The notes beneath the pieces are model-generated. The model saw nothing but the letters and a program-made list of their open reading frames with translations. It was not told the origin of the DNA and made no database searches. This document shows, one piece after another, positions 5,395 through 58,891 of a stretch of 64,000 nucleotides of DNA. The stretch's first letter is position 1; each line of letters opens with the position of its first letter. The stretch is from Octopus vulgaris (taxonomy: Eukaryota). The position numbers and the translations under genes are program-made. The stretch covers positions 154,008,001 to 154,072,000 of the forward strand of contig OX597815.1 in assembly GCA_951406725.2 (NCBI GenBank). The letters are read 5' to 3'.

Positions 5395-5680
<286 letters not shown>

Positions 5681-17718: not shown

Positions 17719-17724
17719 TATATA

Positions 17725-17970
17725 CTTTATTTAAAGCAGCAGATAATTCAACAAAACCTGTTACTCTGAGTTTCACGTTCCCGTTCGTCGGACAGTTTTT
17801 GCTAGATCCTACGATACCAGCACACAAAAACTGTCCGACGAACGGGAACGTGAAACTCAGAGTAACAGGTTTTGTTGAATTTTCTGCTGCTTTAAATAAA
17901 GCATAGTAATCTACCACTGGTATTTGAGTACTCTTTTTTCCACCTTGTTTCACATTTATGTGTTTACTCC

Positions 17971-19010: not shown

Positions 19011-19216
19011 AAGGCGGTGAGCTGGCAGAAACGTTAGCACGCCGGGCGAAATGCGTAGCCGTTCAAATTCCGCCGAGGTCGACTTTGCCTTTCATCCTTT
19101 CGGGGGCGATAAATAAAGCACCAGTTACGCACTGGGGTCGATGTAATCGACTTAATCCCTTTGTCTGTCCTTGTTTGTCCCCTCTATGTTTAGCCCCTTG
19201 TGGGCAGTAAAGAAAT
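19011..19216 (+). mobile_element. SINE family B monomer with tail tttagccccttgtgggcagtaaagaaata
   Basis: Homologous to 2381-2596 and 43310-43451. Confidence 0.88.
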
Positions 19217-19229
19217 ATATATATATCTA

Positions 19230-24814: not shown

Positions 24815-25247
24815 TAAAATAGTACAGATACTTGTCAGTTGTTTGACCTTAGTCAGTTGAGCATGTCCCTTAGTGGCTGACGATATGTGCATCTCTGATC
24901 ACAAGCAAAAGTAGTGGCAGAGCATCATAGCCGTGTGTTGAAAGGAATTCTTGGAGGTTTGAATAATTCGCCTTTGGAAACATGGGTGTTTCAACAGCAT
25001 TAAACAATTCTCATTCAGGTGCCTTTTGAGGGGGATAGGCTACTCGATCAGAAGACATTTTTAACTGGGCCTCACCTGCGAGGTCATGTGCTGTTTATCT
25101 TGATATGAGATCACCATGTCGCGCACATATGGTTGTGATGCATGTGCTTAGCGTACCCTTATCAGATGTGTAGTCATGATGGGTATACTGGGCTTCGGAT
25201 ATTTATACCCCAGTGTCCCATTGATGTCATGCACTGCTCTCTCACTC
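24815..25247 (+). mobile_element. Non-coding repeat with a (TAA)n tail, 5'-truncated, same family as 40393-40935
   Basis: Collinear from cttgtcagttgtttgacctta to gc.ctgctctctcac, followed by (AAT)n. Confidence 0.8.
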
Positions 25248-25307
<60 letters not shown>

Positions 25308-33559: not shown

Positions 33560-33790
33560 TTTCCTTTTCTTTTACTTATTTCAGCCATTAGACAGCGGCC
33601 ATGCTGGATCACAGCCTTGAGCAATTTTTTTAGTCGAATGAATCAACTCCAGAGCTTGTTTATTGTTAAGCCTGGTATTTTACCATCGGTTTCTTTTACC
33701 GAACCGCTATGTTACGTGGACGTAAACATACCAACACCGGCTGTCAACCCGTGGTGGAGGACAAGTACAGACACAAAGACACAAACACAC
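33560..33790 (-). mobile_element. SINE family A, 3' half
   Basis: Reverse complement of the tail and body of 29569-29958. Confidence 0.8.
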
Positions 33791-33869
33791 ATAATGATAT
33801 GAATGACAAATGAAATGGTGAAAAATGTGGGCAACAGCAACGCCCGCCGATAGATGTATATCCGAGCTC

Positions 33870-35632
33870 ATTGTTCATTTATAACACATTTCGAGGCAAT
33901 GAACAACAAAAACAACATTGAGGAGGCATTACATCTCTTACATTGACTACATATGAAGCCACTTTGAGGTAATATCAAAATTAGAATCTTCTTGCCTGAC
34001 ACGACTCCACGCCTCAGAAAAACACCTGGACGGTTGTAAGTAGGGCCTATTCAACAGAAATCTATAGGAATCCATTATCCTGAACAGGTCGGTCTTCCTC
34101 ATGACCTTCACATCCACCCGAAAAGACCAGTCAGGGTCCTCCGTGCAGAACAGGATCTCCTCCCTTCGGCCCTTCGTTTTGAGCTTACCAACAAAGCGCT
34201 CCACTGTCCCTCCCTTGTGGAAGAGGACCACAGATTCCTCCTTCGTGTCATGAAGGGGCTGTACAGTCTCCAACTTTGGTGGCACAACTCCCATCAAAGA
34301 TGCTTCAGTACACACCGGCAGTGTATCACCAACCGCAGGAGATGACCCATTTTTCTTTTTTCACTTTTTTTTCCTTTGAGCCACGGGAGGGTGGAGTTCC
34401 TCCGCCTTGTCCAGCAGATCCTCCTTTTTACCGCAGCAATCGGCTCCTTCGGTGGGTAACCATTGTTGCCCACCTTTCGTTTTCTTCCTTTTTTAGAGGA
34501 GGCTTCTACCTCCTCGACTTCCTCCTTCTCTTCCTTCAATTAGGGAGCAGGGAGTGGTACTTCTATTAACTGTTCAAGTATCCTATTTTGGTCCTTGGAG
34601 CAGTTCTGCTTGATATGACCGGGTTCCAGGCACAGATGACACTTGGAGGGGTGGGGCGTCCCTCAAGCATTACCGGGTACCTAGACCCGGCCATCCTTAA
34701 AAAATCTGGAAAAACCAGATTTTCGGCTGATTGGGTCCATAGAGACAAAACAGCTTTTGACCTCTCCCAATCAGCCGCAGGCAAAATTTTCACATCGAGT
34801 AGCTTGGTACTGCTGCCACCCAGACCCCGGCGGATAGTGTCTTCTATCCAATCGGGTTCAATTCCAGGTGGCAAACTTCTTCCCACAATAAGTGGGAAGG
34901 AATAAAATTTCACTATCCTCCAGGAGCTGGCTTGCGAATTCGCAAGTTTCTTCGCGGGAGTCAAACAACAACCACACCGTTGCAAATCCGCCCCCACCCC
35001 GAGATATATATTTAGTACCTGATATATAGTCTGCTAGCTCTTTTTCAATTATCTTTTTCGAGAATACGGTTATGGTTATGGTATCAAGATATGTGGGTAG
35101 AAGCGCCACCTCTTCCGTCCTCAGCCACACTCGCCAGCCACCTCACCAGCTTCCTCACCTCTTCCACTGTCCTAAACTGGAAGACCACTGTCCCGTATTT
35201 ACATCCTTTGGTTATATACATAATTTGGTTTGACTGCTTCGTTAGCGCTTTTTCTATTATTTCCATTTCCACCTGTTCAGCTTTTTTGTTCTTCAGCGAG
35301 TGTACCCTATAGGTGAGAGTGCTCCTCTGCATTTGCTCCATAATTCTTTTAGGCGGCGAAAACTTCACGTCGCCACCCACCTTCTGCGTTATTTTTCCAT
35401 ATTCCTTCTGTCCAACCAGGTCTACGTCCTTTCTCTTCACCTCCGCCGCCTCAGAAAAACTTCTTGTTTTCTCCAATATTCAGTCCATTCTTCTCACTGC
35501 CTTCAGCAGCTCCTCCTCCGATGAAGACAACTCAGACCCGCTAAAGTCTGAGTACATTGTCTCTCACCGCAGTAACAAAAATCAACGTCCGTCACAAACA
35601 CAAACAACAAACCAAATGAACTCTGGCTAACC
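33870..35632 (-). mobile_element. ORF1-only (gag-like zinc-knuckle) non-autonomous retroelement, copy 1; disrupted ORF ~35557 to 33947
   Basis: Frameshifted ORF chain with two ...LPTY modules, VMLEGRP, CHLCLEPGHIKQNC (CX2CX4HX4C, ~34600-34641), a K/E-rich linker and a C-terminal domain. No RT or endonuclease motifs. Ends approximate. Confidence 0.75.
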
Positions 35633-35879
35633 GGAAGCAAGCTTCTTGCCACACAGCCACACTTCGCCTATCTCATTCTTTTTTTAACCTCTACATGCTA
35701 AACATCACAGTAAATGAAACCTAAGTTGGTTGGAAACATGATCCGTCAAAATAACTTTGAAACAAGTTCAAAGGTAATTGTATAAATATAATTAGACCAC
35801 TCTTGAATTTTCGTTATCTCCCATGGATGTTTTGGATCTTTTTGCTGTTACATCCCCACCGCATTGACCTCCTCCTCCT

Positions 35880-38800
35880 GATACTGTGGTGGATGGACAT
35901 GCAGGGGAATGAACGAACTAGAAAATGAATTGCTTGACGACTACCCGACTTGATGAATGCTCCAGAAGAAAATTCCCCATGAATATGAGAAGGGTAGACA
36001 GGAGTATGATAAATAAAGTAGCACAAAATATAAATGCTATTATACTATGCATTCAGACGGAGTACATAACACAGACGGGGAATCTTCTCCGAGCTCTTGC
36101 GCTACTTGTTGAAGAGAAATTACAACTTAAAAGAACAAAAAATGGTGGAGCAAAAGAACCATGGTGGAAACGACGCATTGAAAGGGACATAATGCAGGCA
36201 AGGCAAGATCTAGAAAAAATTGAATGGTTAAGAAGAAACTGGAAAAATGGGAAAATGACCGACCGAGAAAAGTTAGAGAAGTATAAAATACGGAAGAACG
36301 GATTTGATGCCATAACAGAGCAGTTTAAACAGAGCATCAGTGCAAAAAGCCAGAAGATTTGTGAACAGAAATAAGTAGTTCGAGGAGAACAGATTGTTCA
36401 AAAATATGCCGAAGCAATTCTTCCGAACGTTAGAAGTAGACAATGGGGAAAATTTTGTACCTGATGCAAATCAAGCCAAGGGGTTGTGGAGTCGATTATG
36501 GGGAACCAAGTTGGTGCATAAAAGGGATGCAATGTGGATAGGAACAATCAAGACAGAATTACTAGGAGGAAAGAATCAAAGGAATATCGTCATAAGCATC
36601 AGTTGACGTGAAAGAACGAGTGGGTAAAGTGCGTAACTGGAAAGCCCCAGGACTAGATAGGATTCATGGTTTCTGGCTGAAGAGATGCCACGTGGTGCAT
36701 GAAAGCCTATCAGACCAATTGAATGAGTGTGTCCAGAAAGGTAAGTTCCCGCGAGGATGGTGACTGAGAGGACAACACTTATAATGAAAGATAGAAGAAA
36801 TGGGAATATGGGAATATTGTGAGAAACTACCGTCCCATAGCATGCCTAAACATAATCTGGAAAATACTCACTGGAATATGTGCGGCAAAGATATAGACTT
36901 TCCTGGCACAGGGGGAAATACTACCAAGGGAACACAAAGGATGTAAGAAGAGTTCTTAGGGTACCAAGGATCACCTGGTCATCAATAAAACAGTTTTGAA
37001 GCGTTGTAAAAAGACATCATACAAACATGTCTATGGCTTGGATTGACTTAAAGAAGGCATATGATATGGTGCCTCAATTTTGGATCTATTTCATTTATTA
37101 TCCACAAGGGGCTAAATACAGAATAATCCAATTACAAGACAAACTTATACAAAGACAAACTTGAGGAACTTAAAATACAAAAGAAGATGAAATAAAGATA
37201 GAAAAAAATTAAAAGAAACGAATGGTAATATGAAAAGAGTATAAAATGAGACGCATGCCCACTCGATCCTCGAAATCGAGTGGTTACATTTCGGCAGTTT
37301 TTTTTTCTTTTTCATATAATGAATCCACATTTCTGTTGTCTTTTTTTACTTCACATTTTACACACAGTTTAAGTCTGATTTTTTCAACTCCTCATATTCG
37401 ATTTCCGAGATTGGAATCTCTGGCAATAAAAAACTTGTCACAAAATTTGCAATTTCAGCAATTTCCCTATCGTCTACATAAAAATTGTCTTCCGACAACT
37501 TCACTTTCACCAGTTTTCCCATTTTCTCAACTATTCTTTCCGCTTTCACATCTTCTTTGTATATAACCACGACACCCTGAAACTTACCTCAATCAAACTT
37601 TGTTTTTCTTTTTTCCCTCTTTTGTACATTCTCAGTCTCACATCCTTCCTAACCTTTTCTTCGTTCTACCGACTGTTCTTTTACTTTCGATTTTTTCCTT
37701 TTTTTTTTTTGGTGGTGGTGGTGGGGGCTGACCATACCGTTCACTCCTCCTCACTTTTCTTCTTTTTGGCTTTCTGGGTACAATCCTCCTCTTCCTCTAT
37801 TTTTTCTTCCTCTGTTTGGATTTTTTCTCAATTTTATTTTCCTCTGTTTGTAGTTTCTCCTTTGTTTGTGATTTTATCTGTTCTTTTCTTTGCTCCTTTT
37901 CCTTTTTGTTACATGAGAATTCGTTTAAAGGGCTCTCGGTCCTTATTAGGCCTCTCACTCCGCATATGTAACAATTTGGCTTACGTCCCTCTACCACCAC
38001 ATTAAATGTATTCTCTTCCTCAATTTCAATCTGGTAGGGGATTCTTTCTTTGTCTTCAAATGTGGCAACAAGCCATATTTCGACACCGAACCCCAATCAG
38101 TTTAACTTATCTGTCTCTCCTATAAATCCCAGCGCAGGGTTGTTCTCTGCAACCAACCACTCTGTTTTGATTTCTGGTGGCACTCTTGATATCCTTATTC
38201 TGAACCTAATTCTTCCCTTGTAAGTGGGTAGTAATGCTATTTTCTCTGGTCTCAGAATTATGAGGGAATGTGAGACTGCCTCTTCCATTGTGGGAAACCT
38301 CATCTCCACCGTGCCAAATTTTTTTCCTCAGTCAATATATGTTGCTTTTTTAACAATTTCGCCTAGGCACTCTTCAATTTCTTCCCCTGTTACTCTCTCT
38401 TTTTGGTGGCGACCGCTTGTGTCCTGTAAATTATTGTTTTGCAGCTTCTATCTTCTGGGCGGGATTAAATTGATGTTATCGCTTTCCCTTCTCAGAAAAT
38501 TTCTTCTTTGTCCACATTAATTGGCCTTGCTTCTAGTGATACGGCTGCCCTTGCCGCAGCTGCTCTTGCATAGCCCTCCATACTGGAGGAACTAAGTTAC
38601 TATTTTCCCTCCAAATGGGGAACAAGAACAGCAAATGCAACAATACTAACAACCTTCGCCTTCGTCAAACGATAATTCACAAATAATTCACAATAATTCA
38701 CTAACTCAACACGCAGCACTGATTCAGCTTTGGGATCGATCTAGTACCAGACCTCATTTTTGGATCGTTGAATGCCTGCAGATGTTTGGTGCAGCTGATA

Positions 38801-40277
38801 ACATCACAAATTTTCTGCTGCATAGCATGTAAGAGGGGAAAACCAAATTGTACTCAACTAATGTATTCTTTGGAGAAGTTAATATTAAAAGGGGAATCTT
38901 CCAAGGAGACCTGTTTTCTCCGCTACTTTTTGTAATTGCACTAATACCCATAACAATGAAATTTGGGTAAGTTAAAATGGGTTACCGATGAGGTAAGGTC
39001 AGCGAGGTATATCAAGATAGGGTGAAGATGGTGTTGAAATCCAACCTGAATGCCACAAATGTGATTCCGCGATGAATATCTGAGCAGTTGCGGTGGTCAG
39101 ATATAGTGCGTCCATCCTCAAATGGAGTAAGGAAGAAATATCAACAATGGATAGAAAGACGAAAAAGTTGATGACGCTGCATGGGGCGCTACGCCCTAAA
39201 GCAAACGTAAACAGACTTACATGAAAGGAAAGAATGTGTGTGTGTGTATGTGTGTGTGTGGTGTGTTTGTGTGTGTCTTTGTGTCTGTACTGGAACCGCT
39301 AGACAACCAGTGCTGGTGCATTTAGTAATTATTATCGATTATTGTATAAGGAGAGAAAAGAGAACGCTTGCAGATTATTTGATAAATAGTGATGAAGACC
39401 TGCTGCAATATGCCGCAAAAGATATGGGTATAAATGCGGATGAAATGATGAGCAAGGAAGAGTTTAACCAAAGAACTGAGGGGAAGAGAAAAGAAGACTT
39501 TCTTGAAATGAGAATGCATGGACAGTTTGAAAGGAAGACACAAGACATTAAGGATATTACACCATCGTAGGTATGGCTTGAGCGAGGTGATTTGAAGCGT
39601 GCCACCGAAAGCCTGATCATTGCTACACAAGACCTGGTTCTCGCTAACAATTCAGTAAAGTATAACATCTATGAAACTTCTGACATCCAGAAATGTCGAC
39701 TCTGTGGAAAAAGTGTGGAAAATGTGACCCACTTGGTAAATGGTTGTGAGAGCCTTGCACAAAGAGAATACAAGCGCCGCCACGATAAAGTGTGTGTATC
39801 TTCATTGGCTCTTATGCTGTAAATACTAATATGACGTATCAGAGAACTGGCATAAGCATGTACCAGGTAAAGTTAGGCAGGATGATGGAAAAGTAAAGAT
39901 ACTCTGGGACTATGATTTTCAGACGGAACGTGTAATCGAAAACCGTCGGCCTGATATTGTCATATTGAAAACGAGAGACAAATACTGTTAGATCATTCAT
40001 GTAGCCATACCAAATGACGGATGTTGTGAATAAAGAGGTTGGAAATGGCAAGACTATGGAATTCGAGAGGGTAATGTAACAGTGATACCAGTGGTGATCG
40101 GAGTGTTGTGATCAATGCTATTGAAACTTCAAAACTTCTTAAGGCAAATAGAAATCCCATGCAAGATTGATATATTGCAAAAAGCAGCCATATTGGGCAC
40201 AATGCACATTTTAAGGAAAGTATTATCTGTCTGAGGTCCTTGTTGTGATTTGACAGATGACTAAAGACTGGTGCATA
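35880..40277 (+). mobile_element. Older degenerate R4/Dong-clade LINE with nested insertions and an internal deletion
   Basis: EPWWKRRIE, NWKAPGLD, NYRPIACLN, AWIDLKKAYDMVP, GIFQGDLFSPLLF, CRLCGKSVENVTHLVNGC, KRRHDKV, RPDIV. The MDD region is missing near 38995. Confidence 0.9.
37087..38751 (-). mobile_element. ORF1-only non-autonomous retroelement, copy 2, nested in the R4/Dong LINE
   Basis: 15-bp TSD cctca(a/t)ttttggatc at 37072-37086 and 38752-38766. Disrupted ORF ~38581 to 37358 with IALLPTYKG and VVVEGRKPNCYICGVRGLIRTES. 3' tail tttagccccttgtggataataaatgaaata. Confidence 0.85.
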
Positions 40278-40392: not shown

Positions 40393-40935
40393 AAATGCCC
40401 TGATGCAGTACCAGACTGGCTCCATGACTTCTGACCTTAACTGATAGGAAGTGTTATCATGTACATTGTTTTGTCTTGGTATAAAAGATGGGCTACAGCA
40501 AATATTCTGCTCAATACCACAGATTTGCTTGTCAGTTGTTTGACCTTAACCAGTTGAGCATGTAATGACGATATGAGCATCTCTGATCACGAGCAGAAGT
40601 AGTGGTGGAGTATCAGAGTCATGTATTGAGAGGGATTCTTTGGGATTTGAATGGTTCACCTCTGGAAACATGGGTGTTTCGTTCAACATCCTTAAACAAC
40701 CCTTACTGAGGGACCTTTTGAACGGGATGGGTTACTCGACCAGAAGAAAATCTAACTGGGCCCCACCTGCAAGGTCATGTACTGTTTATCTTGAAATGAG
40801 ATCAACATGTCGCACACATATGGTTGAGATGAATGTGCCTAGTGTACCCTTATCAGACGGGTAGTCATGATGGGTATACTGCACTTCGTATATTTCTCCC
40901 CAGTGTCACTCTGATGACACGCGCTGCTCTCTCAC
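40393..40935 (+). mobile_element. ~540-bp non-coding repeat with a (TAA)n tail
   Basis: Homologous to 24815-25247. Lies between (CAA)n and (TAA)n. Confidence 0.8.
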
Positions 40936-40974
40936 ATAATAATAATGATAATAATAATAATAACAACAATAATA

Positions 40975-41187
40975 ATCCTTTCTACTAAAGGTACAAAGCC
41001 TGACATTTGGTGAGACGAGACTAGTCGATTGCATCGACCCAATGTTTAACTGGTACTTATTTAATCGAACCCGAAGGGATGAACGGCAAATCGACCCTGC
41101 AGAATTTGAACTCAACGTAAGAGCCGGAAGAAATGTCTCTTAGCATTTTGTCCGGCGCACAAATGATTCTGCTAACTTGCCGTCTTG
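40975..41187 (-). mobile_element. SINE family B, older copy
   Basis: Minus strand aagacggcaagttagcagaatc...gagttcaaattctgcagggtcgatttgcc...aataagtaccagtt. Confidence 0.8.
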
Positions 41188-43090: not shown

Positions 43091-43309
43091 GATTTAATTA
43101 ACTAATAAACAATACTGATTTTAAAATCGTCTTTCGGAATATATTGCTGATGTTCTCGGTTGGTCAGAACCTGGATCGTATTTTGAACTTAAAACATGTT
43201 GAAGGCAATCCTCAAACACAACATAAGATCCTAGTTGTGTATTGAATGAAAGACACTATCGCGCGACAAATGCTGGCTACCAAGTCAGCTATATTGGCTA
43301 AAAATCTCG

Positions 43310-43451
43310 AAGTCGACTTTGCCTTTCATCTTTCAAGGGTCGATAAATAAAGTACCAGTTATGTACTGGGGTAGATGTAATCGACTTAATCCCTTTGTCT
43401 GTCCTTGTTTGTCCCCTCTATGTTTAGCCCCTTGTGGGCAATAAAGAAATA
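43310..43451 (+). mobile_element. SINE family B, 5'-truncated
   Basis: Near-identical to 19075-19216. Confidence 0.88.
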
Positions 43452-44607: not shown

Positions 44608-44861
44608 TATTAGGGAATAAATCCAAATTTACAGGGAAAAATCAGATTTAGGATTGAATCCAATTTTATAGTAAAATATTATATAATATTAATTAGAGAC
44701 AAAACCACTATTTTGCAAATCAAACAAGGAAAGACTTAATCAATACATAAAAAAATATTTATTTATTTATTTACTTTATATTAAAATTTTTTTATGTATT
44801 GATTAAGACTTTCCTTGTTTGATTTGCAAAATAGTGGTTTTGTCTCTAATTAATATTATAT
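44608..44861. mobile_element. AT-rich element terminus with a 76-bp inverted duplication (Penelope-like architecture)
   Basis: Arms 44681-44756 and 44786-44861, one mismatch. Terminus homologous to ~21541, ~57268 and ~18040-18112 (-). Confidence 0.7.
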
Positions 44862-44904
44862 ATATATATATATATAAGTACTTACGTGTACTTTCATGCA
44901 TGTA

Positions 44905-51720: not shown

Positions 51721-51881
51721 TACGTATGTGTGTGTGAAAGAGGGCTGGTGATCTTCACGCGTGCCTGTGTGTATGTGTAGGTGTGAAAATGTGGGGATGG
51801 GAATTGGAATTGGTCAATGCTGGTGTGTGGGTAGTGGTGTGTTGTCATATGATGCTTTGTGTGGTATGGTGTAGTGTGTTA

Positions 51882-52530
51882 ATGTACATGCGTATGTGCA
51901 TAACAGACGCTACCACCCTATGAGAAAACGATAGAAGACTTCAGATAACTTACAGTTGACCTGATATACTAAATCCGAATGATCTTACTTCAACGAATAG
52001 CAACAATACTGATTTTCTGTATGATAAATAAACAGTCTGATAATATTTTTGTATCACATAGACGAGTCATTTTATGGCGTTGTCAATTCTTCTAAATCCA
52101 TGGCGTTTAAAAAACCTTTATATGATGAAAGATACATGTATTTATACGCATTAGAATAAACTATGTGACTATCATATCGGCATTTGTGACTTGTTTTATT
52201 GTCTATTTAAATGTACGGGCATCTGGTATATCTTTCATATCAATTACCAAAAAAAAAAAAAAATATATTTTCTTCGCTGACACATACAAGAAAAAATCAT
52301 TGTTGTCTCAGACTGAGAAGAATAGAATCAGCCTTCCACGTGGTTAGTTGTTTTGCAGATGATTGATAATTTAGTTGCAGGCGAATGCTAAATTTTGTCT
52401 TACTTTGTTCAACAAAAAAACAGGCGCTATTCTTATAGGAATTAGCCTAACACTATAAACATACTAACACATATAACATATAAATTAAATGTTTCTGTTC
52501 TTGCTTAAAATACTATCATAGATTAAAATA
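51882..52530 (+). repeat. ~640-bp direct duplication, copy 1 (copy 2 at 58254-58891)
   Basis: Collinear and highly similar from atgtacatgcgtatg to gattaaaata. Confidence 0.92.
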
Positions 52531-58219: not shown

Positions 58220-58253
58220 ATGTGTCTGTATGCGGTTGTGAGTCTGTGTGTTT

Positions 58254-58891
58254 ATGTACATGCGTATGCGCATAACAGACGCTACCACCCTATGAGAAAA
58301 CGATAGAAGACTTCAGATAACTTACGGTTGACCTGATATGCTAAAGCCGAATGATCTTACTTCAACGAATAGCAACAATACTGATTTTCTGTACGATAAA
58401 TAAACAGTCTGATAATATTTTTGTATCACATAGACGAGTCATTTTATTGTTTTGTCTAAGTAATCCATGGCGTTTAAAAACCTTAATATGATAACAGTAC
58501 ATCTATTTATACGCATTAGAATAAACTATGTGACTATCATATCGGCATTTTTGTCTTTCTTGTTTTATTGTCTATTTCAATGTACGGACATCTGGTATAT
58601 CTTTCATTTACGAAACAAAAAGAAAAAAAATGTTTTCTTCGCTGACACATACAAGAAAAAATCATTGTTGTCTCAGATTGAGAAGAATAGAATCAGCCTT
58701 CCACGTGGTAAGTTGTTTTGCAGATGATTGATAATTTAGTTGCAGGCAAATGCTAAATTTTGTCTTCGCTGGGTCAACAAAAATCAGGTGATATTCTTAT
58801 AGGAATTAGCTTAACAATATAACCAAAGTAACACCAAAGTATAAATTATATGTTTCTGGTTTTGCTTAAAATACTAACATTGATTAAAATA
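58254..58891 (+). repeat. ~640-bp direct duplication, copy 2
   Basis: Collinear with 51882-52530. Confidence 0.92.

Follow-up and report, generated by a model that had tools for sequence, protein, structure and literature searches.

ORF1-only non-autonomous LINEs are known from the Jockey (HeT-A), L1 (HAL1) and CR1 (Ag-Sponge) groups (PMC5786205), and HAL1 ('half-L1'), HeT-A and Ag-Sponge are together described as 'ORF1-present' non-autonomous LINEs (PMC5753468, PMC5786205). In the HeT-A/TART/TAHRE system, the ORF1-only element occurs in tandem arrays with a partner that bears a reverse transcriptase (RT) (PMC4700185). Insertion into other repeats also has precedents: Tx1 resides in Tx1D, and the crocodilian Tx1-Mar and SINEU in Mariner-N4, where tandem SINEU copies that sandwich a target-site duplication (TSD) were read as sequential insertion (PMC4494074). 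For octopus, the tRNA-derived OR1 and OR2 have been named as CORE-SINEs, and the accessible parts of these sources name no partner LINE (PMC4824008, PMC4758252); an annotation of O. vulgaris gives 80 L1-Tx1 consensus families, and ORF1-only elements are not mentioned in the part of that report available to us (PMC13282606).

Within a 64,000-nucleotide stretch of Octopus vulgaris DNA (the window, to whose first letter positions refer), we analysed an insert that belongs to a multi-copy ORF1-only non-LTR lineage and is an old, decayed member of it. Judging from sequence comparisons, this lineage, whose ORF1 is under selection and whose 3' tail is common to an L1/Tx1-type LINE and a SINE, probably borrows the endonuclease (EN) and RT of the LINE. 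If so, an L1/Tx1-type LINE lineage becomes the probable driver of a SINE tail that ranks among the most abundant in octopus, and ORF1-only parasites extend to a target-specific L1/Tx1-type system. There, the parasite has retained an ORF1 of its own up to synonymous saturation, and its match to the partner is confined to the partner's last ~45 nt.

The insert and its surroundings in the window

The insert lies on the minus strand at 37,087-38,751 and spans 1,665 bp between near-perfect TSD copies. The 3' copy, CCTCAATTTTGGATC, is found at 37,072-37,086 and reads GATCC... on the element strand; the 5' copy, CCTCATTTTTGGATC, is at 38,752-38,766, also on the minus strand. A preliminary description of this locus had reported a 15-bp TSD, and the direct repeats are present, with 14 of 15 positions matching rather than all of them. 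It had also proposed that the insert, defined at both ends, splits the RT motif of a host LINE. This is borne out by an RT piece from another locus that aligns to both halves of the interrupted element, a decayed R2-group LINE on the plus strand (35,900-40,240, approximate limits) whose RT reading is broken as ..YDMVP[QH]FWI|VECL... The best solved matches of that piece are R2 proteins, and the host, presumably of the Dong/R4 type, is thus unrelated to the partner LINE considered below.

Read along the element, the leader before ORF1 amounts to ~170 nt in all. The short 5' UTR described earlier is present (38,582-38,717, minus strand), but the first ~34 nt of the insert (38,718-38,751, minus) resemble not the element but the target repeat around GATCC, at 74-80% identity, which suggests that they may be a piece of ancestral target carried over from the source copy. 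The decayed ORF1 (about 37,358-38,581, minus) comprises two predicted RRM-like domains and a K/E-rich C-terminal half, with a degenerate CCHC knuckle at 37,932-37,973 (minus); it is interrupted by in-frame stops and frameshifts, and neither EN nor RT was found within the 1,665 bp, just as the single decayed ORF1-like frame of the first reading implied. The 3' UTR contains a 9-bp hairpin (37,259-37,283, minus) that is typical of the ORF1-only clade: among 43 motif-selected variants, each position is paired in 35-42 of 43, with a few double changes. No such hairpin was seen in the 3' UTR of the partner LINE, LINE A.

The insert ends in a tail, GCCCCTTGTGG..AATAA, that is without poly(A) and is common to the SINE and the LINE-A lineage (37,087-37,122, minus strand); single-sequence folds of this shared tail gave no consistent hairpin. 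Its proposed resemblance to the tail of the SINE, referred to as SINE B, holds: the best two non-self tail matches within the 64-kb window are the ends of two plus-strand SINE copies, a 5'-truncated one at 43,308-43,451 (86% over 36 nt at 43,417-43,451, E 2e-4) and another at 19,011-19,217 (83% over 36 nt at 19,183-19,217, E 2e-3).

Other repeats in the window include long imperfect palindromes, probably MITE-like, at 17,721-17,905 (about 90%), 44,676-44,867 (90%) and 5,403-5,644 (69%), and two sets of dispersed duplicated repeats, 51,874-52,530 with 58,246-58,891 (90% identity) and 24,818-25,286 with 40,513-40,976 (82% identity).

The ORF1-only lineage and its protein

The insert is not a single-copy element. 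As a genome query, it recovered at least 51 matches (40 best of 459 candidates scored), which are strongly 3'-biased; the 30 best are 68-90% identical to it, and its tail recurs in further copies. 5'-truncated copies of the family bear TSDs of 12-20 bp. The lineage thus shows the features tested for an ORF1-only element: an ORF1 with no EN or RT, family-wide spread of TSD-flanked and 5'-truncated copies, and selection on ORF1.

This older subfamily prefers NATCC sites. The motif directly follows the tail in 12 of 14 copies of the insert's tail subtype (8 GATCC, 3 AATCC, 1 TATCC), and at each of the six loci where both TSD copies were located, it or a local variant is present in both, so it belongs to the target DNA. 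The same six loci, together with the fact that the motif in the window is host coding sequence, led us to reject GATCC as a terminal redundancy of the element. Four copies (L002, L003, L016, L080) have the same host, a short repeat with a hairpin at its end that we take to be of Helitron type, and one of these loci, L080, holds two different units in tandem within the repeat. Stacked behind a window-like element in this GATCC target is a unit of ~1 kb (L080:5500-6490), whose ORF1-like frame is much shortened and whose tail is a variant. A search for the tail-plus-GATCC pattern led to no autonomous LINE: its 26 matches resolved into 21 SINEs, 4 members of the insert's family, 1 other and 0 LINEs.

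Young relatives of the insert retain intact ORF1 frames of 470-504 aa. When an intact-frame relative was used as the genome query, many stop-free frames of 424-504 aa were obtained among the best 150 of 15,971 candidates scored. Of the 30 best ORF1 loci none had an ORF2 inside the unit, and in 27 the family 3' UTR followed downstream. Contigs from four presumed-RNA runs cover parts of young ORF1-only units; as they speak neither to strand nor to transcription, they were left out of the argument. Separately, ORF1-only subfamilies of 1.93 kb at five loci (L074, L075, L076, L079, L099) have another junction (CCAGTCT..). Behind two of these units comes a second position of the Helitron-like element that young LINE A targets, suggesting a shifted target.

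The closest named proteins carry the label Octopus vulgaris. Pfam detected only zf-CCHC in intact relatives and gave no match for the insert's own ORF pieces. A structural model built from a 29-row alignment (pLDDT 86; 37 for the single-sequence fold) has a tandem-RRM likeness, with a Foldseek match to IMP3 RRM12 at E 5e-5 and Z of 7-9.5 per domain, and ORF1 is accordingly predicted by modelling to be an RNA-binding protein. Atlas matches of one homologue (P0001) to a ZCCHC3-type double RBD and to DUF4283 (0.88; TM <0.5) serve as leads only. A homologue search returned 1,423 relatives, given without context.

Phylogenetic analysis separates the lineage from the sampled LINEs. The tree built from 39 labelled rows places the insert ORF1 inside a 23-row ORF1-only clade with support of 100/99, and all 13 LINE rows lie outside it. 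This tree was obtained after 15 of 54 rows had been dropped as unlabelled, long-branch or mislabelled, the labels having been assigned automatically from flanks; alignment A1 was read without rows U178_C1 and L089_el, whose coordinates were wrong. The tree of all 54 rows (from 60 representatives) agrees with weaker support, recovering a group of 30 without LINE rows at 90/68, and the trees contain one or two further ORF1-only lineages.

The checks suggested at the outset, intact ORFs and dN/dS below one, both turned out positively, as relatives have intact frames and ORF1 is under purifying selection. Between ORF1-only subfamilies, dN/dS over ~180 codons is 0.05-0.26 (with 6 of 28 pairs saturated). 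For the insert against two relatives it is 0.22 (0.14-0.35) and 0.19 (0.11-0.30), and for young subfamilies 0.07-0.15 at dS 0.7-1.4; for two pairs of closely related decayed copies it is 0.51 and 0.53, both intervals including 1. Given the low dN/dS and the separate clade, the lineage has long maintained an ORF1 of its own.

The tail-sharing LINE, the SINE and the mixed arrays

An autonomous LINE with the tail, for which a search had been proposed, does exist: LINE A, a 5.26-kb element with ORF1 and ORF2 that often closes arrays of young ORF1-only units. Its ORF2 contains EN, RT and zf-RVT domains and has human L1 ORF2p as its best solved match (E 6e-65, vs 4e-26 for R2). There are at least 140 matches in the genome at 95-100% identity, many with ORF2 frames of 1,132 aa and many in tandem. 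LINE A has the Tx1 features tested, namely an APE and RT ORF2 of the L1 group, a CCHC knuckle in ORF1 and a preference for repeat targets; the assignment to Tx1 rather than L1 is provisional, being based on characteristic motifs and on targeting. The last 47-49 nt are common to LINE A and young ORF1-only units (94-96%), and the last 41 nt to LINE A and the SINE (80%), while no 5'-UTR match was found between ORF1-only units and LINE A. The tail of the window insert itself has no match to young LINE A at E<=0.01; its last ~30 nt do align, however. Older A-like LINE copies (L092, L095) also bear the shared tail, and at L095 such a LINE stands in tandem with a window-like unit, one duplication being common to both.

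The tails of LINE family B and of the L202 family are related to the shared tail, so the driver of the SINE is not unique. Loci L198-L203 comprise family B, a young L1/Tx1-type LINE with a 1,145-aa ORF2 and a 5.87-kb tandem period, found in (ATT)n microsatellites, and two further families, C and D (ORF2 of 1,148 and 1,140 aa), which are likewise tandem but without the shared tail. Close to the insert, at 33,790-35,660 on the minus strand (approximate limits), an ORF1-bearing element has its tail interrupted by a SINE-like repeat. It had been taken for a diverged relative ~1.5 kb away; the ORF1-bearing element is there but belongs to a separate family, with at most 27% ORF1 identity and a long branch. 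Intact 3' ends of that family (L219-L229) carry the B-type tail, and it is possibly the ORF1-only partner of LINE B. The family yielded 2,167 candidates, and no ORF2 was present within 1.5 kb in 12 loci.

The SINE tail has 105,874 exact matches in the genome. Direct repeats of 10-23 bp (mode 16) flank 19 of 31 full copies in a locus sample enriched for GATCC sites, and in 12 of 78 cases the tail runs straight into another SINE head. Tandem SINE runs with a 184-bp period were also seen (L075:9425-9850; G000:C1:652584-653158), the next SINE being without its first ~50 nt. By eye, the head is tRNA-like; Rfam gave chance matches only, and ARAGORN found no tRNA. SINE tails show no enrichment for GATCC (21 vs 105,874 tails), and none of nine candidate junctions placed a SINE in the Helitron-like target of LINE A. 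Of 77 ORF1-only unit flanks, none was in a SINE head, one mislabelled row aside, though the self-stacking of the SINE agrees with its head as a target. The earlier proposal that the insert uses the same RT as SINE B is consequently retained at the level of the A lineage and not for its young subfamily. Because the SINE lies outside the target of LINE A and the insert's tail is without a young-A match, both are more likely to have been driven by older subfamilies of the A lineage.

Young LINE A inserts into a Helitron-like element of 0.8-1.2 kb (L181-L192, e.g. G000:C2:64610254-64613282), and the empty target site occurs 113 times in the genome. The element ends in CTAG|T in 12 of 12 cases and begins A|TC in 9 of 11 located 5' ends, with a hairpin clear in about half; we consider it a non-autonomous Helitron on the hallmarks of such elements (5' TC, 3' hairpin and CTAG, insertion between A and T). 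It holds a decayed fragment homologous to an L1/Tx1-type ORF1 (best E 8e-8, 12-sequence search), and the LINE A insertion site falls inside this fragment. Among 20 loci sampled from the top of the LINE A matches, LINE A is followed by ATGGAGGAAAGCACC in 15 and by another LINE or unit via a similar junction in 3, while 2 copies lie elsewhere. Directly 5' of the 16 copies with a full 5' end lies an ORF1-only unit in 11, a LINE in 1 and the left half of the target in 4. At four near-identical loci on contig C17 (L234-L237), a ~50-nt tail-only insertion stands between AGATGGAGGTTG repeats.

ORF1-only units are stacked 5' of LINE A up to 22 deep, with locus-specific duplications between them. The arrays are interstitial and TSD-bounded (e.g., C7 at 100.1 of 128.6 Mb). 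In a comparison of 45 units (1.78 kb), the C1 and C22 arrays carry their own locus's junction variant on 8/8 and 8/8 units, left flank included; substitutions between neighbours number up to 46 and 76 in the two arrays, and their 3'-most units are mutually nearest (25). This fits sequential insertion at a regenerated 5' junction, with older units toward the 3' end.

Competing readings and relation to known systems

That the insert is an ordinary LINE copy with an internal deletion, its tail match being incidental, would have refuted the preliminary description. In favour of this are its decay, the homology of its ORF1 to those of LINEs (38% to that of LINE A) and the incomplete sampling of LINEs; as genome searches score the best ~150 candidates, a LINE with a closer ORF1 could escape. 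Such a deletion is nevertheless hard to square with an ORF1-only structure common to many independent copies, an ORF1-only clade under purifying selection, a 3'-UTR hairpin of its own and a 5' UTR without a match to LINE A. A clade uniting the insert with the LINE-A ORF1 is rejected (p-AU 1e-7), which dismisses the sampled tail-sharing LINE as a recent origin. For the sampled LINE families this explanation is refuted, and overall we judge it extremely unlikely. The units might instead be accessory 5' cassettes, copied in cis with the LINE from read-through transcripts and not independent parasites, and the 11 of 16 full-length young LINE-A copies with a unit directly 5', as well as a unit-LINE junction common to several loci, are what this would produce. 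Solitary TSD-bounded copies exist, however, the window insert included; junctions are locus-specific across divergent units; units also lie 3' of a LINE (L124, C2 locus); and the C22 array (8 units) and C11 pair reside in the target without any LINE. Co-mobilisation in cis therefore appears improbable, and the C22 array indicates that prior LINE occupancy is not required.

The arrays could also reflect satellite-like local amplification of a single insertion, by unequal exchange or by rolling-circle copying in the Helitron-like host. The host element does bear Helitron hallmarks, units 5-9 of C7 are identical, as are units 5 and 7 of C22, and units differ by a median of 11 within arrays vs 22 between arrays. 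These identical runs and lower within-array distances show a further contribution from local re-insertion, duplication or collapse in the assembly. As the sole mechanism, however, local amplification is contradicted by the mixture of different families and LINEs within arrays and by adjacent units that differ at up to 76 sites under one junction. Moreover, Helitron flanks are only 86-95% alike vs ~99% for the LINEs inside, and the insertions were thus repeated and later than the host copies. We regard amplification of one insertion as very unlikely to explain the arrays, to whose longest runs it probably contributes.

Under the borrowing of LINE machinery that we favour, the ORF1-only unit would be transcribed and its RNA coated by its own ORF1p, and LINE ORF2p would recognise the ~45-nt tail in trans. 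The site would be set by the active LINE subfamily through its endonuclease: NATCC, often in a Helitron-type repeat, for the insert's subfamily, and ACATGGAGGAAA in the Helitron-like element for young units. Each insertion would duplicate the site and so regenerate, at its 5' junction, a target on which later LINE or ORF1-only copies could land, such that arrays grow 5'-ward with older units at the 3' end, some runs being lengthened further by local duplication. The SINE would likely depend on the same LINE lineage, via less specific or older subfamilies. We think it unlikely that the ORF1-only lineage, rather than being a passive parasite, is a HeT-A-like partner whose separately evolving ORF1p assembles together with LINE particles and influences where they land. 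Were this true, there would be ordered, 5'-growing trains of retroelements at a Helitron-like site with a captured ORF1 piece, trains that would form a readable time series of the contest among LINE, half-LINE and SINE, with the target acting as a sink. Young LINE and ORF1-only copies that are intact, together with a defined target and its 113 empty sites, make it possible to test why ORF1 is retained in non-autonomous elements and how elements come to insert in tandem at a single site. Insertion order, too, is recorded in the arrays.

Compared with HAL1, as far as the accessible parts of the sources describe it, the octopus element likewise encodes ORF1 only, and its inferred dependence is on an L1-group autonomous LINE. 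Unlike HAL1, it is molluscan, has a CCHC/RRM-type ORF1 and ends in a poly(A)-less sequence tail common to a SINE; it is also target-specific, occurs in mixed arrays and is not collinear with its sampled partner. HAL1 proper derives from mammalian L1, with both the 5' and the 3' part of the parent retained, whereas the octopus element shares neither a 5' UTR nor an ORF1 origin with LINE A and has only the 47-49-nt tail in common with it. As with HeT-A, ORF1-only units lie in mixed tandem arrays with the autonomous partner. HeT-A, however, is telomeric and of the Jockey group, whereas the octopus arrays are interstitial, of endonuclease type with TSDs, inside a DNA transposon and with an L1-group partner.

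In its targeting, LINE A resembles Tx1 and Tx1-Mar, to judge from the available text of the source, in that it enters a non-autonomous DNA transposon, and family B in that it enters a microsatellite. The octopus target differs from that of Tx1-Mar and SINEU in being Helitron-like and in containing a decayed ORF1 fragment of the LINE group; unlike SINEU, the stacked octopus parasite is protein-coding, and its arrays reach 22 units. SINE B is like OR1 and OR2 in being abundant in octopus and in having, by eye, a tRNA-like head, the comparison being one of published descriptions, seen in part. In the literature compared, likewise seen in part and with Repbase, Dfam and the octopus library outside the comparison, we did not find the combination of an independent-ORF1 parasite, a three-way tail, ordered mixed arrays and a Helitron-like target with an ORF1 fragment. 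Each ingredient has a precedent, and the octopus system works like HAL1/HeT-A plus Tx1/SINEU while being a member of neither.
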